Below are positions 2,718-57,766 of a stretch of 64,000 nt of DNA, piece by piece; position 1 is the stretch's first letter, and every line of letters starts with the position of its first letter. Made by a program: the position numbers and the translations under genes. The notes under the pieces were generated by a model. The model ran no database searches. It worked only from the letters and a program-made list of their open reading frames with translations, and was not told where the DNA came from. The stretch is from a virus: IMG/VR virus record IMGVR_UViG_3300034175_000060, positions 1 to 64,000 of that record; one strand, 5' to 3'.

Positions 2718-3368
2718 ATGGCAGCTAAAGAAAAGAGCAAACTGGGTGTTATCGAAGGCACTCTGGTATATGCAAAAGTAGGTCAACCTGACAACAAATA
2801 CCAGAGTACTGAAAAGGAATGGTCGATTGAAGTTATCGTAAGCGAAGAAATTGCGGACGAGTGGGATGAACAGTTCAAGAAACAGCCATCGAAGAAAATC
2901 AAAGCAAGTGATTTCTCAGCTAAGTACAAGATTGACTTGCCAGAGCATTTGAAGGGTGAAAAGAGCGTCTACGGTATTAAACTGAAACGCCAAGCCACTA
3001 ACGATGGTGAACCTGTTGACGAGTCCTTCCGACCGAAGATTTACATTGATGATGCTGACGGCAATCGTACTGAGTGCGGGCAAAGTCGTTTGATTGCGAA
3101 CGGTTCATTTGGTAAAGTAAGTTACTTTATTTCGACTAACGACTTCGGCACGTTCAGCCGTCTCCAGAATGTTCTGATGAAGGAAGAAGACTTTATTGAA
3201 TACGAGTCGAAATCTTCTGGCGGTGGTTCGGAATTTGGCGAAGCTAAGTCTGTGAAGTACGAGGAGCCAAAAGAGAGTGTTATGAAAACTCGTGCTGAAA
3301 AACCTGCACCTAAGAAAGTCGTAGAGCAAGACGACATTAGCGAAGAAACTGAACCAAGTCCCTTCTGA
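2718..3368 (+). CDS. single-stranded DNA-binding protein (T7 gp2.5-like)
   Basis: Beta-rich core (GTLVYAKV, IANGSFGKV), acidic tail ending in PF, replication-module context. Confidence 0.75.
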   Translation: MAAKEKSKLGVIEGTLVYAKVGQPDNKYQSTEKEWSIEVIVSEEIADEWDEQFKKQPSKKIKASDFSAKYKIDLPEHLKGEKSVYGIKLKRQATNDGEPVDESFRPKIYIDDADGNRTECGQSRLIANGSFGKVSYFISTNDFGTFSRLQNVLMKEEDFIEYESKSSGGGSEFGEAKSVKYEEPKESVMKTRAEKPAPKKVVEQDDISEETEPSPF

Positions 3369-4327
3369 TGTCAGCGGCACTCATAGCAGAGTGCCTTCTT
3401 GATGTGAAAGACGAAGATGTGTCCAACATAGGTATTTACGTGATTACAAGTGAATCCGGTAAGTTCTATGTTGGACAGTCTGTTGATCTTAAGAAGCGGG
3501 AATATGAACACTTTAGAACATTAAGAAACAACACTCACCATAATAAGCACTTGCAGAACAGTTTCAACAAGTACGGCTATTTAGACTTCTATGTAATCGA
3601 ATATCATTATGACCCTTGGCAGCTAACAGCTAGAGAAGAATACTGGATGAATTTTCTTGACAGTTATTATAACGGAATGAATCTTACTCCTAGTGCTGCT
3701 ACTTCATTAGGTTGTGTCAGGACTGAAGAACAGCGAAGAGTTATTTCGGAAATTACCAAAGAGTTTTGGAGCAAAGAAGAAAACCGTAAAGCTCAGTCTG
3801 AACGTAAGAAGAATTTCTACAAGAACAATCCTGAAGTTCTTTTAAAGATGTCAGAGACAACGAAGAAGATTCTTAAAGATAGTCCTGAACGTTGTGAGAA
3901 GCACTCAGCACTTATGACTGAAAGAAGTAACACACCAGAGTGTCTTGAAGCCTTTACTAAAAGAATGTCTGATTGGCGTAGCACAATTTCATCAGAAGAA
4001 GCCCGTAAGATGGGACTTAAAACGGCAGCTACGAAAAAGTCCCTCGGTGATGAGTACAACAAGAGAATTTTACTTAAAGCTAGTAGAACTAAAGTAGTCA
4101 ACATGATTAAGGGTGACAGCCACATACAGTGGCATATTCTAAAATCAAGAGGCGGGAGACTTCTAACTACCTGTTCTGTACGCTGGACAGAAGCAGATGG
4201 TTCCCAGAAGCTAAAGCGTTTCTCGGCTTTGAAATATGGCGTCCTACCAGCTTACAAAATGGCTTTCTTGTACCGAGGTGAATTACAGAAAAGACTTCTA
4301 CTTGATTATGACGCTTTGTTGAATTAA
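3368..4327 (+). CDS. GIY-YIG homing endonuclease
   Basis: GIYVI...FYVGQS..L..R...H...HHNKHLQNSFNKYG...E..W.....GMN. Confidence 0.9.
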   Translation: MSAALIAECLLDVKDEDVSNIGIYVITSESGKFYVGQSVDLKKREYEHFRTLRNNTHHNKHLQNSFNKYGYLDFYVIEYHYDPWQLTAREEYWMNFLDSYYNGMNLTPSAATSLGCVRTEEQRRVISEITKEFWSKEENRKAQSERKKNFYKNNPEVLLKMSETTKKILKDSPERCEKHSALMTERSNTPECLEAFTKRMSDWRSTISSEEARKMGLKTAATKKSLGDEYNKRILLKASRTKVVNMIKGDSHIQWHILKSRGGRLLTTCSVRWTEADGSQKLKRFSALKYGVLPAYKMAFLYRGELQKRLLLDYDALLN

Positions 4328-5337: not shown

Positions 5338-6146
5338 ACAACAAATCCTTCCGCATCAATAACGAGCAATTTGGTAACGCAACTGTGTGGCCCATCTCTG
5401 AGCACATGCACAGCATCAAGTGGGACAATTGGGAAAATTCTTATTGTATATTTTCCGAGCATATGGAAAATAACCTCAAAGACGGCACTTGGACAAAACT
5501 AGAAGACTCCTTGCCGCGTAGTTTTAAATTCTACTGTGAATCTGAGCCAAGCTGTATTTACACTTACACTCAACAAGCTAATGGTAACCCCCGAGTCTCT
5601 TGGGAGGGTGTCGGTAAGAACTACACTAACAGTTATACTCTGGAGGATGTGAAAGAATGTATTGCTGATGGTCGGTGGGTTGTGCTGCCAGAGAAAAATA
5701 AAGCTAAACGAATGTCCCCAGAAACATTTGCAGACAAATTTGAAGATATCTTATACCGACAAACTGAAGATGCAATTTACACCAGCAGCCCCACTTCGGG
5801 CGGTTACTCCCGTGATCCTGACCATTCTATCGGAGAGGACGTTGATGAATTGATTGCAGGGTATACTAAAGCTGTAGAAGAGACTAAATATACTGCTGAC
5901 GAATATTGCGCAAGCTTTGAAGAAACTTCTGTAGACATTCTCGCAGAAATCAAATCCTTCACAGAACAATCTATAAATAGCACTGTGCGTATTGTGAAAG
6001 ACGGCGCTTATGAGTTGCATTCTAACGGGTATCGTGCAGCATACGCCTACACTGACGAAGAACTTCTGGAGTTGATGGCAGCTATTCTTGTTGTGGAGAA
6101 GGCTCTTAATAAGAAGATTGTTAAGAAGATTGAGGATATTTTTTAA
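5334..6146 (+). CDS. hypothetical protein
   Basis: 270-aa ORF coupled to both neighbours. Confidence 0.7.
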   Translation: MNNKSFRINNEQFGNATVWPISEHMHSIKWDNWENSYCIFSEHMENNLKDGTWTKLEDSLPRSFKFYCESEPSCIYTYTQQANGNPRVSWEGVGKNYTNSYTLEDVKECIADGRWVVLPEKNKAKRMSPETFADKFEDILYRQTEDAIYTSSPTSGGYSRDPDHSIGEDVDELIAGYTKAVEETKYTADEYCASFEETSVDILAEIKSFTEQSINSTVRIVKDGAYELHSNGYRAAYAYTDEELLELMAAILVVEKALNKKIVKKIEDIF

Positions 6147-6691
6147 TGGCTGTTAAGAAGCCTTCTAAAGCCCCTTTAACACGTTGCGGTGGTACACAGA
6201 CAGAATCTCAGTATCTGGCATGGATTCGTAGCTGTCTGCGCTCTAAGAGCCTCAAATGGAAGCCTCGCACAGATTGTATCAACGCTGCAAGGCGACCTTA
6301 CAAGGGTCCAAACAAGCAGCAGAAGTATGAAGTAGAATGTGCCATGTGTGGTGGATGGTTCAAGCTAAAAGAGATTGCAGTTGACCATTTTCCGATTGAG
6401 GCTGGAGGAATTAGGTCTATTGAAGATATCGGACCATTCGCTGAGAGGTTGTTCTGCGAGACTGACAACTTACGCTGCTTGTGCCATGAGTGTCACAGAA
6501 AATGGACATTGGCAAGTTCTAAAGGGATTACTGTTGAACAAGCTGCACTAGAGATTCTTGTGAACGATACTCTCAAGGATAAGAAGAAAACTCTTGCACT
6601 ACTGAAAGAAAACCTGTATAATAACTGTACCAACGATGAGAAGCGTAAAGCTGCTTTGATGGAAATTTTTAGGGAGAATAAGATTGACTAA
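6146..6691 (+). CDS. Zn-binding HNH-type endonuclease
   Basis: CAMC...VDH...NLRCLCHECH. Confidence 0.75.
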   Translation: MAVKKPSKAPLTRCGGTQTESQYLAWIRSCLRSKSLKWKPRTDCINAARRPYKGPNKQQKYEVECAMCGGWFKLKEIAVDHFPIEAGGIRSIEDIGPFAERLFCETDNLRCLCHECHRKWTLASSKGITVEQAALEILVNDTLKDKKKTLALLKENLYNNCTNDEKRKAALMEIFRENKID

Positions 6692-6932: not shown

Positions 6933-7789
6933 GTAATCAAGACTGGCAAGTTGCAGCAGTTCGTTTAGCAGAAACAGAAGTGATGTCTTGGCGTGACATT
7001 GCCATCCAGCTTGAGGTGGCAAAGTCCACAGTGAGTGACTATCTGCGCAGTTATTTCAAATTCAAAGATGAGGCACGTGTGGAAGAAATGTACGAAGAAC
7101 CTGCACCTAAACAGAGCCATGACAATTCTCGTATATTGTTCATCTCTGACATGCACATTCCATATCACCATCCGAACACTATTCCGTTCTTGAAGATGTT
7201 GAAGGAACGTTATAATCCTACGCGAGTGATTTGTTTGGGAGATGAGCTTGACAAGCACGCGCTGAGCTTTCATGATAGCGACCCGGACTTGATGAGTGCT
7301 GGCGATGAGCTTCGTGCTTCTCTGCCGGTTATCAAGCAAGTAGAAGAATTGTTCCCTGTTATGGACATCATTGACAGTAATCATGGTAGTATGGTGTTCC
7401 GCAAATCTAAGGCTCACGGCATTCCACGTCACTATCTGAAAAGCTACAATGAAGTGTTGCAAGTTGGCGATGGTTGGAAGTGGCATCATGACATGACTAT
7501 CGAACTTCCTGACGGCCAGAAGGTTTATATCCATCACGGTAAGAGCGCTGAAGCGATTAAAACCAGTCAAGCAATGAGCATGAGTCATGTGTGTGGTCAC
7601 TTCCACGAGAGCTTTGGTGTGAAGTATTGGGCCAATCCTAACGGTTTGTTCTTTGCAATGAATAGTGGGTGCTTGATTGCAGACGATAGTTACGCATTCG
7701 CTTATAACAACACCAATTTGAAACGTCCTATTATTGGGACTAGTTTGATTATTGATGGTGTACCTATTCTAGAAGCCATGCCACTATGA
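6929..7789 (+). CDS. calcineurin-like metallophosphoesterase with N-terminal HTH
   Basis: DMH, GDELD, SNH, HHG, GHFH metal motifs; SWRDIAIQLEVAKSTVSDYLR HTH. Confidence 0.85.
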   Translation: MSNQDWQVAAVRLAETEVMSWRDIAIQLEVAKSTVSDYLRSYFKFKDEARVEEMYEEPAPKQSHDNSRILFISDMHIPYHHPNTIPFLKMLKERYNPTRVICLGDELDKHALSFHDSDPDLMSAGDELRASLPVIKQVEELFPVMDIIDSNHGSMVFRKSKAHGIPRHYLKSYNEVLQVGDGWKWHHDMTIELPDGQKVYIHHGKSAEAIKTSQAMSMSHVCGHFHESFGVKYWANPNGLFFAMNSGCLIADDSYAFAYNNTNLKRPIIGTSLIIDGVPILEAMPL

Positions 7790-8442
7790 TTGGCGAAAGA
7801 TTCAACAGATGGTTGGTTGTTGTACGCGGTGAGGACTATATCTACCCAAGTACCGGCAAGAGTGCTATAAGATATATTTGTTCTTGTGATTGTGGAGAGA
7901 CTAAGTTGGTGCACAAGAGTCATCTCAAGAACGGTTCTAGTCAGTCTTGTGGTTGTCTAAATCGTGAGATTTCTTCTACTGCTGGTGGCTTGTCTCAGAC
8001 TCGTGCTTACAGGTCTTGGTCAGGGATGATTGGCAGAACGGACCCTAACAACACTCAAGCATCCAATCAATCTTACAGAGACAAAGGAATTACTTGTAGC
8101 GAAGATTGGAAATCCTTTGAAAACTTCTACAGAGACATGGGAGATTGTCCAGAGGGTTATGAGCTAGAACGGGAAGATGTTATGGGAAACTACTGTAAAG
8201 AGAATTGCACATGGTCAGACGAAGTTACCCAAGCAACTAACCGCACAAAGTTCAGTAACAACACTTCTGGTTATACTGGCGTAAGTTGGAGCGAACAACA
8301 TAACAAGTGGCGAGTTGGTCTTTACGTAAACAAGATACGTTATGAAGGCGGGTTATTTGAGAAGGATGATTTTGCCTCTGCTGTAAAGGCCAGAAAAGCA
8401 CTTGAATTAAAGCATCTTGGTTACATAAAGGATCACATGTGA
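7786..8442 (+). CDS. HNH-type homing endonuclease with AP2 domain
   Basis: CSCDCG...SCGC, FENFYRDMG.CP.GYELER.DV.GNYCKENC.W, NNTSGYTGVSW. Confidence 0.85.
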   Translation: MIGERFNRWLVVVRGEDYIYPSTGKSAIRYICSCDCGETKLVHKSHLKNGSSQSCGCLNREISSTAGGLSQTRAYRSWSGMIGRTDPNNTQASNQSYRDKGITCSEDWKSFENFYRDMGDCPEGYELEREDVMGNYCKENCTWSDEVTQATNRTKFSNNTSGYTGVSWSEQHNKWRVGLYVNKIRYEGGLFEKDDFASAVKARKALELKHLGYIKDHM

Positions 8443-13390: not shown

Positions 13391-13951
13391 ATGAAAGAAT
13401 TTGATGTGCACGAATGGTTTTATTATGATGCAAATAGTCCCACTGGTCTGAGGTGGAATAAGGAAATTAGGTCAGGCAGAGATGGTTGTATTCTCAAGCA
13501 TAACAAAGGTGATATAGCAGGTTACCACGATCATAATAAAGGATATCTGAAGGTCTCAGCCAATCACACGAGTCGCTGTGTCCATCGCCTTGTCTGGGAG
13601 ATTTTCTACGGACAAACTGACTTGCAAATTGACCACATTGACGGAATTAAAAACAACAATAAAATAGAGAATCTCAGGCCGGTGGACAATAAGACTAATT
13701 GTAAAAATAAAAATATGTACAAGTGTAATAGCACAGGCGTCACGGGTGTTGGATTCACGACTACTAATAACGGAGTTCTTTACGTTATGGGTTACTACAA
13801 GGATGAGAATTGCAAGAATTGTCGCAAGCACTTTTCTACCAAAAAGTTCGGACTTTTGCCAGCATTTAAGATGGCTGTAGAATATAGGCAAAGAATGATT
13901 GCTCAACTAATCGAGGAAGGTCAACCTTATACAGAACGTCACGGTAAATAA
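13391..13951 (+). CDS. HNH homing endonuclease with AP2-like domain
   Basis: VHRLVWEIF...IDHIDGIKNNNKIENLR; NSTGVTGV. Confidence 0.88.
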   Translation: MKEFDVHEWFYYDANSPTGLRWNKEIRSGRDGCILKHNKGDIAGYHDHNKGYLKVSANHTSRCVHRLVWEIFYGQTDLQIDHIDGIKNNNKIENLRPVDNKTNCKNKNMYKCNSTGVTGVGFTTTNNGVLYVMGYYKDENCKNCRKHFSTKKFGLLPAFKMAVEYRQRMIAQLIEEGQPYTERHGK

Positions 13952-24924: not shown

Positions 24925-25857
24925 TTAAGCTCTGTATTCAGAGTCTAGTTTTGAAATTAGTTTAATAAAGTCTTCTTGTGTTACATCCACGAAGCATTCT
25001 GTATATCCGTCGAATTTGTAGTCAGGTGATTTAAAATTCATCCTTAAATTCGATAATTGTTTCTGTTCTATATCTCTTGCGCGATTACCGTCGTCAAACT
25101 CATAAATAGCAACTTTTTCGAAAGGTATTCCTGATGACATTCTTATTTCTCGCAGGCGGCTTTCAGGGCGTTTATTAGTGATCCCTATCTTGATAGTTTC
25201 ATTAGATTTCAACACATAGAGAGATGCAGGCTTACCTTGACTAAACCCAGATTTGTTACATCTGGTGCAACCACAACCTCGTAAATGTGTACAAGGAGTC
25301 TGACTGAAGGTATAATCACAACGATTACATTTTATCTTTCCAGCGTCTTTAGCAGAGATATACTCAAATTCTGAATAATCATAAGTACCAATACCGTGTT
25401 CTTCCTCAGCCTCTTCTACAAATTTTTCTTTAGTTTTTGCTTGAGTAGGGCCAATGCGCTCCAAACCACACTTAGGACAACCATTACCTTCACAGAGATT
25501 CTGTGCTGTCGTTTCCACAATACCGTGTTTTAAGCAAACGAAACTGATCTTATTCTTACCTTTGGTGTAAATTGAATTAGAGAAATCATACAAATCTGAG
25601 TAATGGTTTATCATCTCAACCAAGAACTGTTCTTGTGTTTTGGTCTGAGATTTGCCACACTGAATGTCTCCACAGACAGGGCAACCATAACCTTGTTGCA
25701 GACTGTTAGGCCGGGTTTCAAAATCACCGTGCTCATAACAACCCACTGTAACTTTTATGTGAGCATATTCATAAACTACTCTGGAGAGGTCATACCTGTC
25801 TCCATGAATCTTTATAATATTCTCTTTAAACTTTTCTGTTGTAAGTCTAGGTGGCAT
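24925..25857 (-). CDS. putative homing endonuclease (Zn-ribbon repeats plus GIY-YIG/T5orf172-like domain)
   Basis: Three CxxHG...GCPxC-type repeats; LYVL...KIGITN...R; FDGYTECF. Confidence 0.75.
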   Translation of the reverse strand: MPPRLTTEKFKENIIKIHGDRYDLSRVVYEYAHIKVTVGCYEHGDFETRPNSLQQGYGCPVCGDIQCGKSQTKTQEQFLVEMINHYSDLYDFSNSIYTKGKNKISFVCLKHGIVETTAQNLCEGNGCPKCGLERIGPTQAKTKEKFVEEAEEEHGIGTYDYSEFEYISAKDAGKIKCNRCDYTFSQTPCTHLRGCGCTRCNKSGFSQGKPASLYVLKSNETIKIGITNKRPESRLREIRMSSGIPFEKVAIYEFDDGNRARDIEQKQLSNLRMNFKSPDYKFDGYTECFVDVTQEDFIKLISKLDSEYRA

Positions 25858-25964
25858 GTGTATCCTTCATAAGATACACTAGATGGGAAGCGGATAAATG
25901 TCCGCAATTCCCGTAGTGTTGAAAATTAAAGCCACCAAGTATTTCTACTAAGTGGCTAATTTGT

Positions 25965-26435
25965 TTACGCTGCTTGGTAGAAGTTACCGCTAATTTCCAC
26001 GTTCGTATCGAACGAAGTAATCTGGTTGACCGAGCCAACGTTAATTGGAGCAGACATAACTTGACCTTGGAAATACAGAGTAGCTTGTGGCAGACCTGTA
26101 GCACCACCACCAATTGTCAGCTTAAACGAGTAAGCCAGTGGATCATCAAGAGCGATCAGAAGCTTAGCTTGACCCGGATCACTAGGAGCATAAGCACCTT
26201 GCAGAGCCAGTTGACCTGAGTTCGACGTACCCTTAAATTTATATGTTGTCGGATCGGCAACAGGTTCGTGTGTAATCAGCGAGAACACTTTACCGATAAC
26301 ACCAATGTTGGTCAGTTCTTTGACTTGAACGTAAGTTTGGGCAGCAAAGCCCGCAGCGTCAAAGGTTGCTGGAACAGCGTTGGAAGTGCAGATGTACAGT
26401 TTTGAACCTGCACTGGGGAAGGCTAGAGTAGCAAT
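25965..26435 (-). CDS. major tail tube protein (apparent AUU start)
   Basis: The frame extends upstream of the track ORF: ATLAFPSAGSKLYIC...PATFDAAGFAA..Y..V.EL..IG; YKFKGTSNSG, DPGQ motifs; GAGG RBS before ATT. Confidence 0.85.
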   Translation of the reverse strand: MATLAFPSAGSKLYICTSNAVPATFDAAGFAAQTYVQVKELTNIGVIGKVFSLITHEPVADPTTYKFKGTSNSGQLALQGAYAPSDPGQAKLLIALDDPLAYSFKLTIGGGATGLPQATLYFQGQVMSAPINVGSVNQITSFDTNVEISGNFYQAA

Positions 26436-26454
26436 TTTGGGTACCTCTTTATAG

Positions 26455-27177
26455 TTAAGTTTTATTTGCGGAGATTATCTCTCCAAATGTCTCTGTAATT
26501 TTTAGGTACAGATCGGAGCGGTCAACATCCACAAATGTTTCTGTGTAACCGTCAAAAGTTTTATTGATATTCTTATAGGTTTTCCTGAGATAACGCAGAA
26601 CTATTGTCTCTATATCTAAGGCCGTTTTGCCTTCAAAGAACTTAAGCTCTAATAGAACATCAAAATTTAGTCCGGAGTCTCTTGAGACTAGACCACACCT
26701 TTTCTTAACAGTGCGGTTAGTTATTCCGAGTTTGGTGTAATCATCACCGCAACCAAGTACATACAACGATCCGGGCCGCCCACTTTTGAAACCTGATTTA
26801 GCGCAATCAGGACAATTCTGCCCTTGTCGATGGTTGTCAGGTGTCTGATGGAAAATGCCGTGTAATGGGCAAATGATCTTGATTTTCGTAATCTTGTCTA
26901 AGTAGTCAACCAAAGAATAGTCATAAAAGTCTCCCCGAATCTCTCGGGTTTTCTCAACCCATTCCTCTGTAGTTGGACTGTAAGTAGGACTACATTTATC
27001 ACAACCTCTCCCCATCATATGAGAATCAGCATTTTGTTCAAAGTCACCATGCACAGGACAAGTAATAGTAACCAAGCTCCTACGGTTCTTATAAACTGTC
27101 CTATCATATGAAAACTTAGCACCATTTATTACTTTACTTCTTCGAATAAATTCCTCTGTGGTAAGCTTTCGACCCAT
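26455..27177 (-). CDS. putative homing endonuclease, paralog of 24925-25857
   Basis: Two CPxHG...CxxC repeats; SGFKSGRPGSLYVL..KLGITN; FDGYTETFVDV. Confidence 0.75.
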   Translation of the reverse strand: MGRKLTTEEFIRRSKVINGAKFSYDRTVYKNRRSLVTITCPVHGDFEQNADSHMMGRGCDKCSPTYSPTTEEWVEKTREIRGDFYDYSLVDYLDKITKIKIICPLHGIFHQTPDNHRQGQNCPDCAKSGFKSGRPGSLYVLGCGDDYTKLGITNRTVKKRCGLVSRDSGLNFDVLLELKFFEGKTALDIETIVLRYLRKTYKNINKTFDGYTETFVDVDRSDLYLKITETFGEIISANKT

Positions 27178-27186
27178 TTGCAACCT

Positions 27187-31688: not shown

Positions 31689-32369
31689 TTAAATTGGCGA
31701 AATGCCGGATTGAATCGACTTATCCCCAGAAGCATCTGGTGTAAGCTTACCGCTGAAAATAAGCCATTCTGTATCCTCGTTTGGATTCCAGCCTGCCTTA
31801 ATCTTTTTGAACATGGTAGATAGCTGATCTTTAGTTACACCGAGAGCAGTAGCTGCCTTGCTATAACCGTGAGTGGGGTTCTCAACAAAATACTTGTAAA
31901 CTTCGTCTGCCATCTTCCAAACACTCTTGTTGGAGAACTGGCACAACCACGCAACTTTTTTAGAATTAGTCTTCGCAGAGTTATCTAAAGCCGCTTGATT
32001 AGGTTTTCGACCTTGGGCTTTAGCGATAAAACTTAATTTTTGACGAGTGTCTTCTGATAACTTTGAACCTAATCTATTACAATTACCGCCAGCATCACAG
32101 TTATAGCCTATCCGAGGTGTTGGACGTAGTTTGTTTTCTAACTCGTAACAATATTTAACATCTGCAAGAATAACTTCTTCAATAATTAACAGTTCACCGT
32201 ATTTTCTAATAGCATTGTGTATTGGTAATTTACTACCTCCTCGTGCTTTAGATTGGTGTTCTTTAAATCGGTGAACAGCGCCTTTTGCTGCTACACCAAT
32301 ATATCCTTGTGAGAACATATCAGTGTGCTCCGGGAGGTGTATCCAGTAGACACAACTCTTACTTAGCAT
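31689..32369 (-). CDS. GIY-YIG homing endonuclease (NUMOD3-like linker)
   Basis: VYWIH...GYIGV....RF.EH...AIRKYG...E....GYN...GG; LSEDTRQKLS. Confidence 0.8.
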   Translation of the reverse strand: MLSKSCVYWIHLPEHTDMFSQGYIGVAAKGAVHRFKEHQSKARGGSKLPIHNAIRKYGELLIIEEVILADVKYCYELENKLRPTPRIGYNCDAGGNCNRLGSKLSEDTRQKLSFIAKAQGRKPNQAALDNSAKTNSKKVAWLCQFSNKSVWKMADEVYKYFVENPTHGYSKAATALGVTKDQLSTMFKKIKAGWNPNEDTEWLIFSGKLTPDASGDKSIQSGISPI

Positions 32370-32898
32370 CTGCACTCTTGTATTGAGCAGCAAATTTTGC
32401 TGCGAGGCGGGTTGCAGTATCGGCTTCGTCTACAGGTGTTTCCACCGTCGCAGCTACGCCTTTTTCTTGGAACATTTCTGATTTACTTTCAGCTTCACGG
32501 TTGACAGCAAATGCACTCAACACAGTATTGAAAGTGGTGTCATCGGCACCTTCCAGCGATGCCAGAACAGGAGCAGCGCCAATAGTACCCAGCACAGCTT
32601 CCAGTTTTTCTTTACGAGCAGCAATCACAACAGCTTTAGCTTGTGCAGCGAATTCAGCTTGAGCCGTTTCCGATGCAGCCAGTGCGGCGGACATTTTCTC
32701 AACTTGTGCAGCCATAGCTACAAAAGCGTCTTCTTTGGTTGCCAGAGCGGCTGTAGCCTGTTCGAGACTAGCAGTAAGCTCTGCAATAGTTGCGGCAGTT
32801 GCTAGTGCAGTCGCCTCAGTGGTTTCAGTCATTTCGACTTCCTCTTGAATAGCAGCTTGCACTGCTGGTTTAAAATACTTCTGAAGATGTTTAAGCAT
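32359..32898 (-). CDS. capsid scaffolding protein
   Basis: Ala/Glu-rich coiled coil between protease and decoration genes. Confidence 0.75.
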   Translation of the reverse strand: MLKHLQKYFKPAVQAAIQEEVEMTETTEATALATAATIAELTASLEQATAALATKEDAFVAMAAQVEKMSAALAASETAQAEFAAQAKAVVIAARKEKLEAVLGTIGAAPVLASLEGADDTTFNTVLSAFAVNREAESKSEMFQEKGVAATVETPVDEADTATRLAAKFAAQYKSADAK

Positions 32899-39242: not shown

Positions 39243-39992
39243 GTGAGCCGTAATGCTAATCGTTTTGCAAAGAAACAGGTGACTGGGTCTGATGAGGATC
39301 GAGTTGTAAAAGCGAAGTTCCTTGCAGTGTCACGAGAAGAAGTAAAGTTGAAGGCAATTACGCCCCTCAACGAACGACAAGAAGAATATTTTGAAGCTTT
39401 GCGTACTAAGGATTTGGTTGTAGCCAGCGGCATGGCCGGAACCTCAAAAACCTTTGTAGCATGTTGCTTTGCCGCTGATGCCTACCGTGCAGGAGATATC
39501 AATAAGATTGTTCTGGCTCGTCCCGCTGAGAGTTCTTCCAAATCTCTGGGTTTCGCTAAGGGCGACCAGACAATGAAGATGATGCAATGGGTTATGCCTA
39601 TGATTTCTGTGCTGTACACGCGCATGGGCAAGGCTGTAGTTGATCTTGCAATCCTTGAAGGTAATATCATTTTGCAACCTTTGGAGTCTATCAAGGGTAT
39701 GAGCTTTGGTAAATACACTTGGGTTATTGCTGACGAAGTGGAGGATTGCACAATTGAAGAAATCAAATCTATTGTTACTCGCAGTGGTGGATGCCGGATG
39801 ACATTATGCGGTGACGTCTCCCAAAGCTGCCTGAAAGAGACAAGCGGGTTATTGGCCTTGATGAAGATTATTGAAGGTTCTCCTCGGTTGCAAGAAAGTG
39901 CAGCTTTAATTGACTTTGACTCGTATGACCACATTGTACGTAGTAAGTTGTGCAAAGACTTCATTATTGCCTATGACAAAGCGGGATATTGA
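39243..39992 (+). CDS. phoH: PhoH family ATPase
   Basis: GMAGTSKT, LARPA, LGFAKGD, KGMSF, IADEVED, CGDVSQ. Confidence 0.9.
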   Translation: MSRNANRFAKKQVTGSDEDRVVKAKFLAVSREEVKLKAITPLNERQEEYFEALRTKDLVVASGMAGTSKTFVACCFAADAYRAGDINKIVLARPAESSSKSLGFAKGDQTMKMMQWVMPMISVLYTRMGKAVVDLAILEGNIILQPLESIKGMSFGKYTWVIADEVEDCTIEEIKSIVTRSGGCRMTLCGDVSQSCLKETSGLLALMKIIEGSPRLQESAALIDFDSYDHIVRSKLCKDFIIAYDKAGY

Positions 39993-40714
39993 TGGATGAA
40001 AATATAGGTAAAGTGTTTGGTAGACTTACTGTCTTGGAGAAAACAGCCATTAAATCTAAGTACCATTACTCTTGCCAATGCTCTTGTGGCAACGTAAAAG
40101 AAATCTCCTTTGGGAATTTAGTAAAGAAGAACTCTCCAACATTGTCTTGCGGTTGCCTTAGAAATGAAAACATCACTAAAATTTGTGGTAAACATCTCAT
40201 GGCAAAAAGTAAGGAGTATAAATCTTGGTCTAAAGTAAAAGAGCGTACAGGAAATCCTAAGACTCATAACTATTGTGATTATGGCGATAAAGGTTTTCTT
40301 TTGCAAGATTCTTGGCATAGCTTTCAAGCATTCATAGATTATATGGGGTTGATGCCAAAAGACGGTAAGAGGTACACAATTGACAGGATTCAAAATCATC
40401 TAGGTTATATAGAAGGTAATGTGCGATGGGCTACCAACCACGAGCAAGCTCGAAATAAAACAAAGCCGAAGAATAACTCGTCAGGATTCGTGGGTGTTGC
40501 TTGGCATGATAAACCCAGCCGTGATAAAACATCTTCACTACTTTACGCAACAGCTATTTGGTATGCTCTGGAGGGTAAAAAGAAGTCAAAGTGCTTTTCG
40601 GTAAAAACTTACGGGCTACTCCCAGCCTTCAAACTTGCTGTAGAATATCGTAACAAAATGATTGCAGAGCTAAACTCCCAAGGTGCTGGCTACACTGAAC
40701 TTCACGGTAAATAA
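39992..40714 (+). CDS. HNH-type homing endonuclease with AP2-like domain
   Basis: CQCSCG..SCGC, TIDRIQNHLGYIEGNVRWA, NNSSGFVGV. Confidence 0.85.
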   Translation: MDENIGKVFGRLTVLEKTAIKSKYHYSCQCSCGNVKEISFGNLVKKNSPTLSCGCLRNENITKICGKHLMAKSKEYKSWSKVKERTGNPKTHNYCDYGDKGFLLQDSWHSFQAFIDYMGLMPKDGKRYTIDRIQNHLGYIEGNVRWATNHEQARNKTKPKNNSSGFVGVAWHDKPSRDKTSSLLYATAIWYALEGKKKSKCFSVKTYGLLPAFKLAVEYRNKMIAELNSQGAGYTELHGK

Positions 40715-42370: not shown

Positions 42371-42589
42371 ATGGCAAAAGTAAAATTCAGTAAAGACGTG
42401 GCACTATCTTATCGTGAGCAAGGAATGTCTCACCAAGAAATATCTGAAATTATGGGTTGTTCGCTGAAGTGGGTAAACAGTGCCTTGGTGGGAGTACCTA
42501 AAGGCAACATGCGTGTCCCTGTTGACGATACGAAGATTCAAGTCATGAATCTAGTTAGAGAACTGCTAGTGAAACTGGAGGCATTGTAA
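42371..42589 (+). CDS. small HTH DNA-binding protein
   Basis: GMSHQEISEIMGCSLKWVN; own promoter TTGACA..TAAAAT at 42315-42342. Confidence 0.7.
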   Translation: MAKVKFSKDVALSYREQGMSHQEISEIMGCSLKWVNSALVGVPKGNMRVPVDDTKIQVMNLVRELLVKLEAL

Positions 42590-43785
42590 TGTTGGGTACG
42601 CGAATTAAAACTATCAACTTCGGCTGGTGTGAAGCTATCTCTGACATGTATGTAATTGAAGGTAAGAAATCTCGTGGTGGTTGGGTTGATGTCAAGTTTG
42701 ACAACACCGGTTATGTGAAGAGAAATGTCATAGTTGATTTCTTCAATCAAGGTTGCGTGCGCGACTCCAGCATACCTATTGTAATCGAGATTGGTCAGAT
42801 ATACCACACAAATCTTTCTGGTGATGTGAAGATTATTGGAGGGGATAGAAATCTAAATATCCAGATTGAGTTTCTGGAGAGCGGCAATACTTACAAAGCG
42901 CAGAAAGACGCACTTCTCACAGGATTTGTTAAGGACAAACCATCTGTTGACAAAAGGCTGGTTAAGGAAGAGGAAGAAAAGCAACACAGGAAGTATGTTG
43001 CAGAATGTGAAGCTTCTGTGAGAAAGAACGCAGAAGAACATGCTAAACGCATCAAACAGGCTAAGAAGGATGAACGTGCGAAGTTAATCAAAGAACACAA
43101 AGAATTTGTTGAAGCTTCTAAGCAGGAACGAAAACATAAGAACGAATCGTTGCTTCAGAAAGCGTTAGATTTCTCTTATGTGCAAATCGACCAAACTACT
43201 TACAGTGCAGGGCTTCTTAACGTTGATTTCAAAGATATAGAGGGTAAGTGGGTGTTGCGATACAGAAATCCTAAGACCAAAGATTTCGTTCAAACTCGCT
43301 TAGGTAAACTCCATAACAACATGACCCAACGAGGAAAGAAAGATTCTGCACTGCAAGACGTACATAACAAATCCTACAACGGTGTCTCCGTAAGCGAAGA
43401 GTTCAAGAATGCACAAACATTCTGTGACTGGGCGGTACAGCAACCCGGATGGGGCTTAGGTTATGATCTTGAGAAAGATTTATTGGTAGACGGCAACCGA
43501 GAGTACTCTTCTGAAGCTTGCTGCTTCCTGCCTGCGGACTTGAACATGGTTATTGCTTTCAAAGGTAAAGTTGATTGTATTAAGAGCGGAGAGTGTTATA
43601 CAGCACGAGCTTCGGCAAGAGGTGAGAGTTTTGTCCTCGGTAGATTTGAGACTGAGGAAGAGGCAACTTCGGCTTGTCTTGAATACAAACACGAGAGGGC
43701 CATGAAACTACTTGAGATATTCAAGCCGTACATTTCTCCCAAAGCTGTAGATAAGTTAATTGAGCTATTTGGAAAATCTCATTGA
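42589..43785 (+). CDS. putative HNH-related homing endonuclease (duplicated N-terminal module, coiled coil, AP2-like end)
   Basis: YNGVSVSEEFKN..TFCDW...LEKDLLVDGNREYS..CCFLP..LN; LGRFETEEEA. Confidence 0.7.
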   Translation: MLGTRIKTINFGWCEAISDMYVIEGKKSRGGWVDVKFDNTGYVKRNVIVDFFNQGCVRDSSIPIVIEIGQIYHTNLSGDVKIIGGDRNLNIQIEFLESGNTYKAQKDALLTGFVKDKPSVDKRLVKEEEEKQHRKYVAECEASVRKNAEEHAKRIKQAKKDERAKLIKEHKEFVEASKQERKHKNESLLQKALDFSYVQIDQTTYSAGLLNVDFKDIEGKWVLRYRNPKTKDFVQTRLGKLHNNMTQRGKKDSALQDVHNKSYNGVSVSEEFKNAQTFCDWAVQQPGWGLGYDLEKDLLVDGNREYSSEACCFLPADLNMVIAFKGKVDCIKSGECYTARASARGESFVLGRFETEEEATSACLEYKHERAMKLLEIFKPYISPKAVDKLIELFGKSH

Positions 43786-43837: not shown

Positions 43838-44503
43838 ATGAAACGTTTTGCTTATCTTCGTTGCAGTAGTGACGTACAAAGTACGGATCACCAAAAGAAT
43901 ACTATCATTCAGAGTGGGTATGTTCCAGATGTTTGGTATTCAGAAGACGGTGTATCTGGTACTACGTCTGCTAGTAAACGCCCAGAGTTTCAGAAGATGA
44001 TGCTAGAGGCAGTGGAAGGAGACGAAGTTTTGGTATTTGCTGTAGATCGCCTTGGTAGGAGGGCTGCTGACATCCTTCAAACGGTAGAATTATTCATCGA
44101 AAAGAAGATCAAACTACGTATCCATGCTTTCGACAATCTAGACATCACAAGTATGTATGGCAAAGTTTTGGTGCAGTTCTTGGCTGTGTTCGCGGAACTG
44201 GATCGTGCTCAGATCATTGCACGCTGTGTCAGCGGAAATCAAAAGAAGAAAGATGCTGGTGTTATCCTTGGCAGAGGCTTCACTATTCCGCCTGAAATTT
44301 TGGAAAATTTAAAAATCGATCAAGATTCTGGTATGACTCTAAATGAACTGGCGGGGAAATATGACATCAATCGAGCCACAATCAGTCGGAATCTTATTGA
44401 ATGGGGAAGCAATCTCAGTGAGTACGAAACCCGCTGGAATACATTCCAACAGCAGAAAGAAGATCGTCGTTTGAGTAAGATTGCCAAGCTTCAAAACACG
44501 TAA
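43838..44503 (+). CDS. small serine recombinase (resolvase/invertase family)
   Basis: YLRCSS..Q, GVSG....RPEF, GD.V.V..VDRLGR, FAELDR..I..R, C-terminal HTH. Confidence 0.92.
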   Translation: MKRFAYLRCSSDVQSTDHQKNTIIQSGYVPDVWYSEDGVSGTTSASKRPEFQKMMLEAVEGDEVLVFAVDRLGRRAADILQTVELFIEKKIKLRIHAFDNLDITSMYGKVLVQFLAVFAELDRAQIIARCVSGNQKKKDAGVILGRGFTIPPEILENLKIDQDSGMTLNELAGKYDINRATISRNLIEWGSNLSEYETRWNTFQQQKEDRRLSKIAKLQNT

Positions 44504-48437: not shown

Positions 48438-48680
48438 TCATGCAACCTCCAATATAATACTAGGCAAATTCAATTCTACACCCTTCCACCACTTGCACAA
48501 GGTTTCTTTCTCCTTAGCTGTGCAATAGTAGCCTAGAAGCTCCCAAAAAGCATGTAGGCGCTTGTTTGTCTCAACACCGGGCGGATGCTCTATATGGTCT
48601 GACAAGATGCGCAGGTAGTCGCTAATGAGGACGGCTTTGCACACTTCATATTGTTGATCGTCTGTAAGTTCAATATTCAT
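48438..48680 (-). CDS. hypothetical protein
   Basis: 80-aa ORF. Confidence 0.55.
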   Translation of the reverse strand: MNIELTDDQQYEVCKAVLISDYLRILSDHIEHPPGVETNKRLHAFWELLGYYCTAKEKETLCKWWKGVELNLPSIILEVA

Positions 48681-48858
48681 AATTCCACCACATAGCCAAC
48701 TTCAATTAATCGATTATCCACAGGATGCTGAATATACACATTAGCATCACACGGCTTACCATCTCGCAGACAACGAGTTTTCACCATATCGCGACCTAGG
48801 TCGTCTAGTTCGGCGGGGTCTTGCAATAGCTCTATAACTTCGTATTTCATATCAATCC

Positions 48859-50148
48859 TTATTTAGAACAATCTTCAACTTGCAGAATACCATCTTCTAA
48901 CCAATTCATTTTCATACTCACAACTCTGTCAACCTCGACAACTCGTTTATACGCATAGCTCATAGCGTCCACAAGCTTATCGGCATTCTTACGTTGTACT
49001 ATAAATGAATCGTGCACAACTAAAACAGGCTGTTGAATCTTTACAAACTCATCTAGTACGTAATGAGCAATCCAGCTATCTTTATTCTGTAGCACCAATC
49101 CTGTGCACTCTTTGTTGCAGAACTTGCTTTTGAATTCCGGCAGCTTCTTATAGACTTCCTTTACAACCTCATCACCGGAGCTATAACAGAATGTTCCTTT
49201 CGGTTCCTCCGCAATTAGATCGTCAATAGCATTCTTTGCTTTGTACTCAGACGTAGCATTGAGCATAATGTTTATGCCAAGCTTTACAAGCCGTCTATTG
49301 TCTGTGCTATAATTTTGCTTGTCTAGCACATGGTAGTAGATATCCATACCTCTATACTTACTAACACACATTATATCAGAAAGCATGTTAATGTGCAAGC
49401 AATCGAAGTCAATCTCAACAATAGATTCACCGTCAATTGTTGTTCTCAGTCGATCTTTAGTTTTCTTGTTCTTGATCTTGAGAATAGCAGCTTTGAACCA
49501 CCGACCGCCAAAGAAGAAAGATTCATTGTTGAATATCCTACCATACATGTTCACCATGAAGCTACCGGCATAGTCTAGGAATATGTGATTAGAATTCAAT
49601 TGATTGACGGCAAATACAACACGCTCGGCCTCTACTAGTTCCTCTGTGAACTCATAAGCTATAGGATTCTTATTCTTGTCTCTTAGTTCGATACTTACAT
49701 TGGCAAGAATATGGTTATCCTCGGCTGTTGTCACTAACTCAGGCTTAGCACAGAACTTATCAATAAAGCTATCGGAGGGAACAACATACGATGACTGCTT
49801 ATCTCCAATGTCACCATATTGCCTAGGAGCAAGGTAATTGAACAGATAGCCTAGCTGTTGTAGTTCAGCCACAGCATTGTATATGTTATAATTAGATAGC
49901 TTACGTACATTGTAGATAGAAGGCAAGATACCTGTCTTACCTCTGAGATAGTATAGTCTCTGTCTACGCTTGACACAAGCAATCATATTCATGATGACAA
50001 CATGTAAAGCTGATCTATTCTTAGTCTTCCATCGTTCAGTGATCTTCCTCACTCTCTTGTCTATCTCTATGTTTAGCATCATCACCTTACTGTTACTAGT
50101 GTATGATTGTGTGCTTAGTGTTATCCCTTCTTCTGTTACTGTAATCAT
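48859..50148 (-). CDS. compact PolA/T7-RNAP superfamily polymerase (TV-Pol-like)
   Basis: GGRWF; motif A EIDFDCLH; motif B RRLVK; LQNKDS; motif C VHDSFIV. Confidence 0.7.
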   Translation of the reverse strand: MITVTEEGITLSTQSYTSNSKVMMLNIEIDKRVRKITERWKTKNRSALHVVIMNMIACVKRRQRLYYLRGKTGILPSIYNVRKLSNYNIYNAVAELQQLGYLFNYLAPRQYGDIGDKQSSYVVPSDSFIDKFCAKPELVTTAEDNHILANVSIELRDKNKNPIAYEFTEELVEAERVVFAVNQLNSNHIFLDYAGSFMVNMYGRIFNNESFFFGGRWFKAAILKIKNKKTKDRLRTTIDGESIVEIDFDCLHINMLSDIMCVSKYRGMDIYYHVLDKQNYSTDNRRLVKLGINIMLNATSEYKAKNAIDDLIAEEPKGTFCYSSGDEVVKEVYKKLPEFKSKFCNKECTGLVLQNKDSWIAHYVLDEFVKIQQPVLVVHDSFIVQRKNADKLVDAMSYAYKRVVEVDRVVSMKMNWLEDGILQVEDCSK

Positions 50149-50319
50149 CTATTCCTCTTGTAGTCTCTTCAGCTAGGCTAGTAGTCCTCCGCAGGTCAGG
50201 CGGGCTTACTCATTATGGCATGAAATCAACGCCTAAAAGCCCACAAAGCTAGGCTGTATGCGGGTTCTAAGGCATTTCATAGTGGGTTATTGGTGAAAAT
50301 CACCCTTCACATAACGATC

Positions 50320-50347
50320 ATTGTACAGCAAGCCTGCACACAGTCAA
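50320..50347 (-). promoter_or_regulatory. promoter upstream of the polymerase-like gene
   Basis: TTGACT-16 bp-TACAAT. Confidence 0.6.
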
Positions 50348-50383
50348 GACAATTATAACTATCACCACAATAGCAATCAACTA

Positions 50384-50896
50384 TCATACACCTACCTTAT
50401 CAGCCATCCATCGAACAACTTTCTGCACTACAGAATGTTTCACTTTAGCAACAGGTTCAAGCTTCTTAAGAGATTCACTAATCTTGTGCAACACTTGTAC
50501 AGAATCTTTCCTGAAGTCTGTTTCAAAGATTGCCTTAATATTATTAGCTGCCAAGCTTACAGAGATGGTATTTTCTACAGTGTAGCCTTTCTCACAGTCA
50601 ACACGTTCTAGTGTCAAGTCTGTGGGCCGACGTACGTTATCACTTCCTGTACGAGTAAGCTTGATGCCTGTGTATGCACAATGTTCCACTTTTAACAACT
50701 CTTCTACATCTTGACGAGTTAAAGAGAAAGCAATCTTACGCGCCCTACTGCTGTTAGCTTTGTTGCGATAGAAATTATCTATACGGTGTTCGGTCCATGG
50801 CTCGGAGTCAGCAGGAGGCAAGTTCTTTACAGTTTCTGCTTTCACTTTCTTCACAGCTTTTCTTTGCACAGCTTTAGGTATTTTAACAGTAGTCAT
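50384..50896 (-). CDS. HNH-fold protein resembling the T4 Srd family
   Basis: CAYTG...LTLERVDCEKGYTVENTISV...NNIK. Confidence 0.6.
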   Translation of the reverse strand: MTTVKIPKAVQRKAVKKVKAETVKNLPPADSEPWTEHRIDNFYRNKANSSRARKIAFSLTRQDVEELLKVEHCAYTGIKLTRTGSDNVRRPTDLTLERVDCEKGYTVENTISVSLAANNIKAIFETDFRKDSVQVLHKISESLKKLEPVAKVKHSVVQKVVRWMADKVGV

Positions 50897-51132
50897 AATC
50901 TCACCCATGTTTGATAATCACCCTCACTATACTCCCTGCCATTCACCCTATCCCTAGCCTTCTCAATCTCTACCAGCGCCTCCCTATGCCCCTCACAAGC
51001 CCTGTTCGCTTGATCGTCGCTAAGCCTCCACAGTGCTGGCACGCGAAGCTCTCCTAGAGCCTTACAGAACGTGCAATAGGTGTTTATGTGCTTAGGAATG
51101 TGTACATCAATGCACCTCCACACTATCCACAT
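50893..51132 (-). CDS. hypothetical protein
   Basis: Cys-containing small ORF; start uncertain. Confidence 0.5.
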   Translation of the reverse strand: MWIVWRCIDVHIPKHINTYCTFCKALGELRVPALWRLSDDQANRACEGHREALVEIEKARDRVNGREYSEGDYQTWVRL

Positions 51133-57457: not shown

Positions 57458-57766
57458 TTACACTGGTACACGTTTATGCACAATACGATGACTCCCAATC
57501 GTTCCAGCATTCTCGCGGTATTCCTTCAGGCGCTGATTAGCTTCCTTGCGCGTTTCTTCGGTGCATTCAACGTCCCAACCATGTCCGTAATTACCTTGAA
57601 TTTCAAATTCATCTTTCAAGACACGACGCACTTTGGTTACAACAATATTCGCATCGTATCCGTCATGGCTTACCAAAGCTTGCTTAACATCTTCCACGGT
57701 GAAGCCTTCATTGTAGAACACACGGTCAATGATTTTACGGCCCAGTTTGATATTGAATGCTTGCAT
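57458..57766 (-). CDS. hypothetical protein
   Basis: GGAG RBS; IDRVFY...VKQALVSHDGYD. Confidence 0.65.
   Translation of the reverse strand: MQAFNIKLGRKIIDRVFYNEGFTVEDVKQALVSHDGYDANIVVTKVRRVLKDEFEIQGNYGHGWDVECTEETRKEANQRLKEYRENAGTIGSHRIVHKRVPV

Follow-up and report, generated by a model that had tools for sequence, protein, structure and literature searches.

The window analysed here is the first 64,000 nucleotides (nt) of IMG/VR virus record IMGVR_UViG_3300034175_000060, a complete 86,208-bp virus record with direct terminal repeats. On its minus strand, an open reading frame (ORF) with an ATG start at 48859..50148 encodes a 429-amino-acid (aa) protein in which a predicted winged helix precedes a minimal family-A polymerase, and which belongs to the divPolA2 family of phage proteins. 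We propose, with a probability of about 0.5, that it is an origin-specific initiator-primase that starts theta replication of the phage.

A winged helix fused to a minimal polymerase core

The initial annotation had read the ORF as a minimal polymerase of the PolA/T7 RNA polymerase (RNAP) superfamily, free of an exonuclease domain and perhaps carrying an N-terminal winged helix, and had suggested a Foldseek comparison with Pol I; all of this holds in the structural analysis. An AlphaFold2 model was computed from A2, an alignment and profile of 106 diverse relatives that is the basis of all residue counts below (about 45 of the 150 listed matches were excluded from it, mostly fragments and forms longer than 480 aa). 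The model reached a predicted local distance difference test score (pLDDT) of 94.8 and a predicted template-modelling score (pTM) of 0.91. In the Foldseek search of the PDB, family-A DNA polymerases made up all 48 matches listed (best E 1.8e-6). VIA-align gave apicoplast Pol as the best DNA polymerase (Z 16.1, 245 aligned residues at a root-mean-square deviation (rmsd) of 3.7), followed by Pol nu (14.8), Klenow (14.4) and T7 DNA polymerase (13.3), with 244-256 aligned residues and rmsd 3.7-4.0 for the top three. RNAPs were also matched: the yeast mitochondrial enzyme at Z 13.8, T7 RNAP at 12.2, the N4 virion RNAP at 8.9 and N4 RNAPII at 7.9. All polymerase matches in VIA-align span approximately residues 145-428, and neither the model nor any structural match places an exonuclease domain in the protein. 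These comparisons show that residues from about 146 to 429 form a stripped-down family-A core, with palm, fingers, the hairpin arginine, the D247/D380 pair and the O-helix residues R285 and K289.

In the search with the whole model, winged-helix proteins rank below the polymerases, at Z of about 6 over residues 30-145. Folded alone from nine sequences, the N-terminal 150 residues gave a pLDDT of 80.7, and the 50 VIA-align matches listed for this isolated domain are mostly winged helices, among them MarR, GntR, Rrf2, PadR, Fur, ORC, ScpB and ribosomal eS19-type domains, with Z of 5.4-6.7 over 62-99 aligned residues and none reaching 8. The A2 profile also matches PadR-type regulators weakly (E 0.024-0.04). 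A winged-helix assignment of the N-terminal domain is supported by these models, less strongly than the polymerase match. The winged helix is the commonest fold for recognising a specific double-stranded DNA site.

The relation to family-A polymerases is visible by fold and not by the PF00476 and PF00940 profiles. Pfam gave no family for the ORF at E up to 10, these two included; across the 106 relatives no family was found in more than one, and PF00476 and PF00940 in none. Sequence searches of NCBIfam and the PDB likewise found no polymerase.

Conserved motifs and the active site

The 429-aa frame stands as annotated, and the five motifs initially named in it all occur in the translation in the same order (Table 1). 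Because their residues are invariant or nearly so across the relatives, the motifs are not due to chance: G215, R216, E245, D247, Y271, K289, H379 and D380 are found in 106/106, N297 in 105, H252 in 102, R285 and D269 in 101 each, and S381 in 100. The motif A Asp had been placed in EIDFDCLH. It is D247; the second Asp, D249, is retained in only 7/106 relatives (Ser in 43/106); therefore, the catalytic pair is D247 of motif A with D380 of motif C, and not both Asp of EIDFD. The public gene call (P0004) starts at an internal Met and has 337 aa, or 79% of the ORF. The longer frame is the better call because the relatives align from residue 1, and the public call therefore loses most of the winged helix.

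Residues were mapped onto known enzymes by aligning A2 to single sequences with hhalign, the residue numbers being read off translated records. These alignments are statistically weak but colinear through all motifs and serve for residue mapping only: local E-values were 0.039 for T7 RNAP, 0.15 for E. coli Pol I and 0.53 for T7 DNA polymerase, and the low-threshold local mode was again colinear but weak (E 0.054 and 0.017, with 0.054 for the Klenow alignment). A search for diverse T7 RNAP relatives listed only sequences at least about 74% identical, and the resulting profile was not used. The mapped residues presumably have the roles of their Klenow and T7 RNAP counterparts.

The equivalents of E710, F762 and Y766, residues of sugar selection and template stacking in DNA-type family-A enzymes, are all replaced in the window protein. 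The steric-gate position of E710 holds His in 102/106 relatives, and that of F762 (N293) holds Asn in 64, Leu in 25 and Met in 7 of them. Two early remarks on the motifs agree with the mapping: the usual Tyr of motif B is replaced by Asn, since N297 falls on Klenow Y766 and T7 RNAP Y639, and the HDSF of motif C is that of T7 RNAP. In the literature, E710 and F762 are described as discriminating against ribonucleotides, and both are retained in the polymerase CCPol (Bebel et al. 2020, PMC7581432). The clade of the window protein lacks both of the residues by which its DNA-type relatives reject ribonucleotides.

Membership in divPolA2 and relation to known enzymes

The family is large. One search gave 16 close relatives, and an exhaustive one 2229 representative clusters (E up to 0.001). 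Relatives also occur in 57 records of Vibrio, Aeromonas, Pseudoalteromonas and Pseudaeromonas phages, all below 60% identity. In PHROGs the protein matches phrog_4756, of unknown function (E 1.4e-45). Searched against MG592441.1, A2 gave a match at 25472-26701 on the minus strand (E 8.4e-44, profile positions 14-413), inside the coding sequence NVP1063O_041 / AUR84708.1, the published representative of divPolA2 (PMC11348598). The window protein belongs to divPolA2, and its membership is direct because A2 matches AUR84708 and a barbavirus protein is a full-length structural match.

According to Yutin et al. (2024, Virol J 21:200, PMC11348598), divPolA2 came to light in 110 barbaviruses with genomes of 80-85 kb and a regular PolB of their own, and was later found in more phages, Vibrio phages included, sometimes as two or three paralogues and in a variable neighbourhood; the authors propose a repair polymerase or an RNA polymerase. 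The window protein agrees with that description in its length of about 430 aa, its family-A palm with conserved catalytic residues, its N-terminal globular domain and the lack of a 3'-5' exonuclease, and it too is encoded beside a regular replicase in a variable neighbourhood. The N-terminal domain, which the same paper describes as unlike any known, is a predicted winged helix in the window protein. In pairwise comparison, identity to AUR84708 is low, with BLASTP aligning 107 residues at E 4e-5, and the two active sites differ. In AUR84708 the set is DNA-polymerase-like: Glu fills the steric gate, Tyr the Y766 position, and motif C reads FDE, whereas the window protein, its bacterial relatives and the protein of the cholera phage ICP1 have His at the gate and Asn at the Y766 position, with HDS in motif C in the window and bacterial proteins and HDA in that of ICP1. 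The divPolA2 family appears to split into members with DNA-like and non-DNA-like active-site signatures.

TV-Pol, described by Iyer, Abhiman and Aravind (2008, PMC2579912), is a second point of reference. Priming was predicted for such proteins, whose genes are linked to D5-like helicases or to resolvases, integrases or transposases, and a subset with an extra N-terminal domain adjoins gamma-delta resolvases or integrases in integration hot spots of bacteria such as Rhodobacterales, Loktanella and Paracoccus; a TV-Pol element is also reported inside phage Ma-LMM01 (PMC2579912). The window protein shares with TV-Pol the hairpin arginine (R216), D247 and D380, the fingers Asp (D269), the R285-x3-K289 spacing and the lack of a nuclease, and some of its bacterial relatives, N-terminal domain included, occur near resolvases or integrases in the same kinds of bacteria. 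It differs in that the phage shows no link to a helicase and no tight link to a resolvase, and in its N-terminal domain, a predicted winged helix where that of TV-Pol was predicted to be all-helical (PMC2579912). The kinship with TV-Pol put forward at the outset fits by features and bacterial setting, and no sequence tie to a named TV-Pol was found; the A2 and A5 profiles matched nothing in Ma-LMM01, in a search that had no known positive. Two things were missing from the initial annotation: the 2024 description of the phage family under the name divPolA2, and the demonstration in 2020 that one TV-Pol, CCPol, acts as a primase with its partner MP.

CCPol, a TV-Pol of the mobile element SCCmec, primes DNA synthesis together with MP (Bebel et al. 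2020, PMC7581432; Rice 2023, PMC10061031). Like the window protein it is a family-A polymerase found on mobile elements; among relatives of this kind CCPol alone has been assayed, and it starts DNA chains. However, CCPol needs the OB-fold partner MP, has a helicase gene in its operon, uses dNTPs and retains the residues equivalent to E710 and F762 (PMC7581432), whereas the window protein has neither such a partner nor a helicase neighbour, lacks both residues and carries a fused winged helix. With the T7-like single-subunit RNAPs, such as N4 RNAPII and the mitochondrial enzyme, it shares the palm and fingers fold and the HDSF motif C; it differs from them in being at most half their size, in giving no PF00940 match, in having Asn for Y639, in an unrelated N-terminal domain and in that no promoter set was found.

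Both TV-Pol and divPolA2 were known before, each by computation, and the window protein is a further member of the family. New here are the winged-helix assignment, the division of divPolA2 into DNA-like and non-DNA-like forms, its tie to resolvase-type elements, and the coincidence with the ICP1 origin described below.

Bacterial relatives in a mobile-element setting

A scan of one genome per species gave 171 relatives among 189 candidates, and the bacteria concerned include Rhodobacteraceae, Loktanella, Paracoccus, Mesorhizobium, Brevundimonas, Victivallales and Bacteroidota. Twelve hand-picked bacterial relatives align over their full length, N-terminal domain included. At these 12 loci, a resolvase lies within 2.5 kb in three, a tyrosine integrase within about 4.5 kb in four, and restriction or defence genes nearby in five; no replicative helicase or primase was recognisable within about 4.5 kb on each side. 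In one alphaproteobacterial order, 22/301 genomes carry the gene, a patchy distribution of the kind typical of mobile elements. Bacterial proteins in a TV-Pol setting share the whole architecture of the window protein, which ties divPolA2 to resolvase-type bacterial elements.

A proposed role in origin-specific initiation

The phage encodes its own DNA polymerase (genome 83617-85689, beyond the window; L004 3617-5689; phrog_1252, E 2e-173) and a T7-type primase/helicase (phrog_239, E 1.6e-126); therefore, the small enzyme is not the replicase. A separate full-size DNA polymerase is present in 9/9 phages examined, with a replicase of this phage's type in G000, G002, G004 and G005 and a PF00476 PolA in G001, G003, HNL01 and ICP1_2006_D. 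The small polymerase itself occurs in all five related complete genomes (84-89 kb), even though their terminases are only 34-45% identical to that of this phage and their replicases are of two types.

In the mechanism that we propose, the protein would be made early from host-type promoters, its winged helix would bind the phage genome at one site or a few, and the polymerase core would make a short initiating strand there. The phage replicase would extend this strand, so that the protein would start theta replication. The strand may be RNA, because the clade has replaced the residues that exclude ribonucleotides in DNA-type relatives. The initial annotation had left primase, RNA polymerase and origin-binding initiator side by side; the evidence shifts this choice towards initiation without proving any of them.

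The case for initiation has four parts: the architecture, which joins a site-reading winged helix to a polymerase core; the bacterial setting, on elements where the neighbourhoods scanned hold no other recognisable replication gene; the analogy offered by CCPol-MP, a proven primase (PMC7581432); and ICP1. Early expression from host-type promoters also fits an initiator, as does the search for a repeated phage-specific promoter motif such as a dedicated RNA polymerase would need, in which none was found. In PLE-like satellites, the initiator position is described as holding a RepA_N protein or a 'DNA Pol I domain' protein (PMC9410903).

The ICP1 homologue, ICP12006E_102 (ORF100) of ICP1_2006_E, is matched by A2 at E 1.3e-50. 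It is a 555-aa protein annotated as hypothetical and encoded at MH310934.1 58951-60618 (locus L109 5992-7659), with a divergent strand switch at 57539-57690, 1.3 kb upstream. Its position coincides with the published peak that places the ICP1 theta origin, an early bidirectional coverage peak 'near the 60 kb position', obtained with ICP1_2006_E from which CRISPR and cas2-3 had been deleted (Barth et al., PMC7145576; BioProject PRJNA577694). In the literature on an ICP1 initiator or single-subunit RNA polymerase, we found no study of ICP12006E_102. A homologue in Aliivibrio fischeri phage HNL01 matched the profile at E 4.6e-127.

The evidence for early expression lies in the 235-nt gap upstream of the gene (50149-50383), which holds two sigma-70-like promoters, the gene itself standing within a long run of small minus-strand ORFs. 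Promoter 2 is conserved in all three sequences aligned (the window and the related loci L007 and L008, whose polymerases are 81% and 52% identical to the window protein), and promoter 1 is conserved in L008 and not in L007. With its promoters and gap among small ORFs, the polymerase gene therefore has the appearance of one transcribed early by the host RNA polymerase, in agreement with the early-gene setting first assigned to it. The arrangement recurs elsewhere: in 6/7 viral loci the polymerase gene follows a non-coding gap of 105-230 nt, among small ORFs.

Priming of DNA replication at origins is also a function of T7 RNAP and of mitochondrial RNAP, and in ColE2-type plasmids a single Rep polypeptide binds the origin and makes the primer itself. 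The likeness to ColE2 Rep is one of mechanism, since its catalytic fold is unrelated and we claim no homology.

Several observations weigh against this role. The ICP1 coincidence is a single observation at 1-kb resolution for which the plotted coordinates were not seen; with a deletion strain and unseen reference coordinates, the gene could therefore lie a few kb from the peak. The clade is known from computation only. As first noted, the gene is away from the replication module, about 31 kb from the genes for the primase-helicase and DNA polymerase, and has no helicase as a neighbour, nor SSB. Near the gene, no convincing iterons, tandem repeats or AT-rich stretch and, in this phage, no strand-switch point were found. 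CCPol primes only with its partner (PMC7581432), and no partner is conserved at the window locus. Paralogues are unusual for an initiator: a profile search of this genome with its own family gave a single copy (E 6.3e-142), but two copies occur on one 83.9-kb contig (loci L015 and L017) and in phage records 11895-B1, vB_CoeS_P1, R16F, P018-4 and J2-1, and two to three are reported in PMC11348598. Finally, with HDS in motif C and the Glu/Phe sugar gate lost, the active site is reminiscent of RNA polymerases. By analogy with known primers of replication, such an RNA-like signature could be reconciled with an initiator role if the primer made at the origin is RNA.

An origin-specific initiator-primase of this kind would explain how start sites are chosen in many phages with T7-type replisomes and how one gene suffices for small resolvase-type elements to replicate, and would be a minimal site-directed polymerase of about 430 residues. 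More tentatively, and with somewhat less confidence than for this phage alone, we suggest that winged-helix PolA-like proteins are self-contained replication initiators in ICP1, barbaviruses, this phage group and bacterial elements of the resolvase/integrase type, one polypeptide both reading the origin and laying the first strand, which may be RNA. If true, origin-specific priming enzymes would gain a third kind, one with a family-A fold, and the unknown initiator of a well-studied cholera phage would have a name. The family is spread across marine and enteric phages and bacterial mobile elements, with no Pfam, NCBIfam or PHROG name, and the link to the ICP1 origin makes the initiator idea testable on existing data.

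Alternative functions

The protein could instead be a small DNA-dependent RNA polymerase for a subset of phage genes, with the winged helix as a built-in promoter-recognition module; it would then be among the smallest known. We consider this unlikely. The T7, yeast mitochondrial and two N4 enzymes are indeed among the structural matches (Z 7.9-13.8), motif C reads HDSF as in T7 RNAP, and the steric-gate Glu has become His in 102/106 relatives and the F762 position Asn, Leu or Met, both being kept in the dNTP-using CCPol (PMC7581432). However, the Tyr that senses the 2'-OH in T7 RNAP (Y639) is Asn in the window protein, PF00940 gives no match even at E 10, and DNA polymerases outscore RNAPs in both fold searches. 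The gene sits among early genes, the place of the RNAP in T7, and no canonical RNAP was detected in the phage, in a search whose control was also empty; yet no conserved phage-specific promoter was found, no 10-14-mer recurs genome-wide above expectation, and 7-10-mers in 49 intergenic regions do not exceed shuffles, sigma-70 elements apart. The possibility was raised by Yutin et al. (PMC11348598), and one Atlas cluster is automatically named 'DNA-directed RNA polymerase family protein', but the bacterial relatives are found in small integrative elements with no obvious use for a private RNA polymerase.

A role as an accessory DNA polymerase that repairs DNA, fills gaps or bypasses lesions while the phage replicates, also among the options of Yutin et al. 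(PMC11348598), seems quite improbable. It would agree with the best structural matches being DNA polymerases, Pol nu and Pol theta included, with the lack of a proofreading domain and with the regular replicase that always accompanies the gene in the phages examined. A sequence-reading N-terminal winged helix is nonetheless unexpected in a repair enzyme, the E710, F762 and Y766 equivalents are all replaced, and the gene appears to be expressed early from a strong promoter of its own, away from genes of nucleotide metabolism and recombination. We find it slightly less probable still that the gene serves itself as the replication gene of a small selfish element, of the TV-Pol plus resolvase type, lodged in the phage. 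A serine recombinase gene does lie 4.4 kb downstream (43838-44503), with a similar pairing about 6 kb apart in G002, yet among the five related complete genomes the recombinase is found in one and the polymerase in all. Bacterial relatives are linked to resolvases, a TV-Pol element is reported in Ma-LMM01 (Iyer et al., PMC2579912), and the phage genome is crowded with homing endonuclease genes. A polymerase 81% identical occurs in a phage whose terminase is only 45% identical, which suggests exchange. Distant relatives nevertheless have the gene where it stands in this phage, surrounded by small early genes and behind a conserved promoter, and flanking repeats were looked for and none found. 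Origin-specific initiation remains the reading that we prefer.

Locus features and neighbouring genes

Table 1. Features of the polymerase gene and its surroundings in the window, with the equivalent residues of known enzymes.
Feature	Position in window	Strand	Residues	Basis or equivalent
Whole gene: winged helix and minimal family-A polymerase (divPolA2 / TV-Pol-like)	48859..50148	-	429 aa	
Predicted N-terminal winged-helix domain	49714..50067	-	about 28-145	VIA-align, weak profile matches
Polymerase core (residual thumb region, palm, fingers)	48862..49713	-	about 146-429	fold searches
Beta-hairpin arginine, G214-G215-R216	49501..49509	-	214-216	G215 and R216 in 106/106; G215-R216 on Klenow G667-R668 (hhalign)
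GGRWF			214-218	ORF translation
Motif A strand and helix start (E245, D247, H252)	49393..49428	-	241-252	D247 on Klenow D705; H252 on Klenow E710, steric gate (hhalign)
EIDFDCLH			245-252	ORF translation
Motif B / O-helix (R285, K289, N293, N297)	49255..49305	-	282-298	predicted helix 282-297; R285/K289/N293/N297 on Klenow R754/K758/F762/Y766 and T7 RNAP R627/K631/M635/Y639 (hhalign)
RRLVKLGINIMLNA (motif B)			285-298	ORF translation
LQNKDS			353-358	ORF translation; Q354 on Klenow Q849 (hhalign)
Motif C hairpin (H379, D380, S381, F382)	48994..49023	-	376-385	H379-D380-S381 on Klenow H881-D882-E883 and T7 RNAP H811-D812-S813, F382 on F814 (hhalign)
VHDSFIV (motif C)			378-384	ORF translation
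Two sigma-70-like promoters, upstream of polymerase gene	50320..50380	-		
Promoter 1, TTGATT-17-TATAAT	50380-50352	-		10/12 positions
Promoter 2, TTGACT-16-TACAAT	50347-50320	-		10/12 positions
Leader of about 170 nt, promoter to start codon	50149..50319	-		long blocks conserved with the 81%-identical L007
Two co-oriented ORFs (57 and 80 aa) directly downstream	48438..48850	-		

The leader had been singled out initially for a hairpin at 50150-50320. As a special structure this is not supported: the leader folds no better than its shuffles (z -1.45, 12/200 shuffles as good), and no Rfam family matched it.

The 57- and 80-aa ORFs downstream are probably on the same transcript as the polymerase and are not conserved partners. 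The 57-aa ORF is detectable in 2/9 related loci (L007 and L008) and the 80-aa ORF in 1/9, and the small downstream ORFs of the other loci are unrelated to those of the window. Beyond close relatives, no conserved neighbour was found, be it a helicase, SSB or another partner. The 174-aa product of the gene just upstream (50384-50908, minus strand) matches HNH and endonuclease VII families on the one hand and, on the other, the PHROGs 'Srd anti-sigma' and 'decoy of host sigma70' (E 6e-17 to 7e-24), and may act as a nuclease or in host takeover.

The 690-aa DNA polymerase of the phage matched no Pfam family at E 0.001, and its copy in G002 is read through one in-frame TGA. The serine recombinase or DNA invertase gene (plus strand; phrog_125, E 3.5e-41) stands in an otherwise lytic-looking phage.

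At least 12 ORFs of HNH or homing-endonuclease type are scattered through the phage genome. Those in the window lie at 5-718, 3368-4327, 6146-6691, 7786-8442, 13391-13951, 24925-25857, 26455-27183, 31689-32393, 39989-40714 and 42589-43785, and those beyond it at genome positions 74571-75212 and 83033-83611. Several are inside structural or replication modules, one of them between the primase-helicase and the DNA polymerase. A further 383-aa ORF (genome 65760-66911; L003 1760-2911), with a CapR homology domain (PF21817, E 4.5e-13) and a match to the endonuclease family phrog_681, is probably another homing-endonuclease relative.

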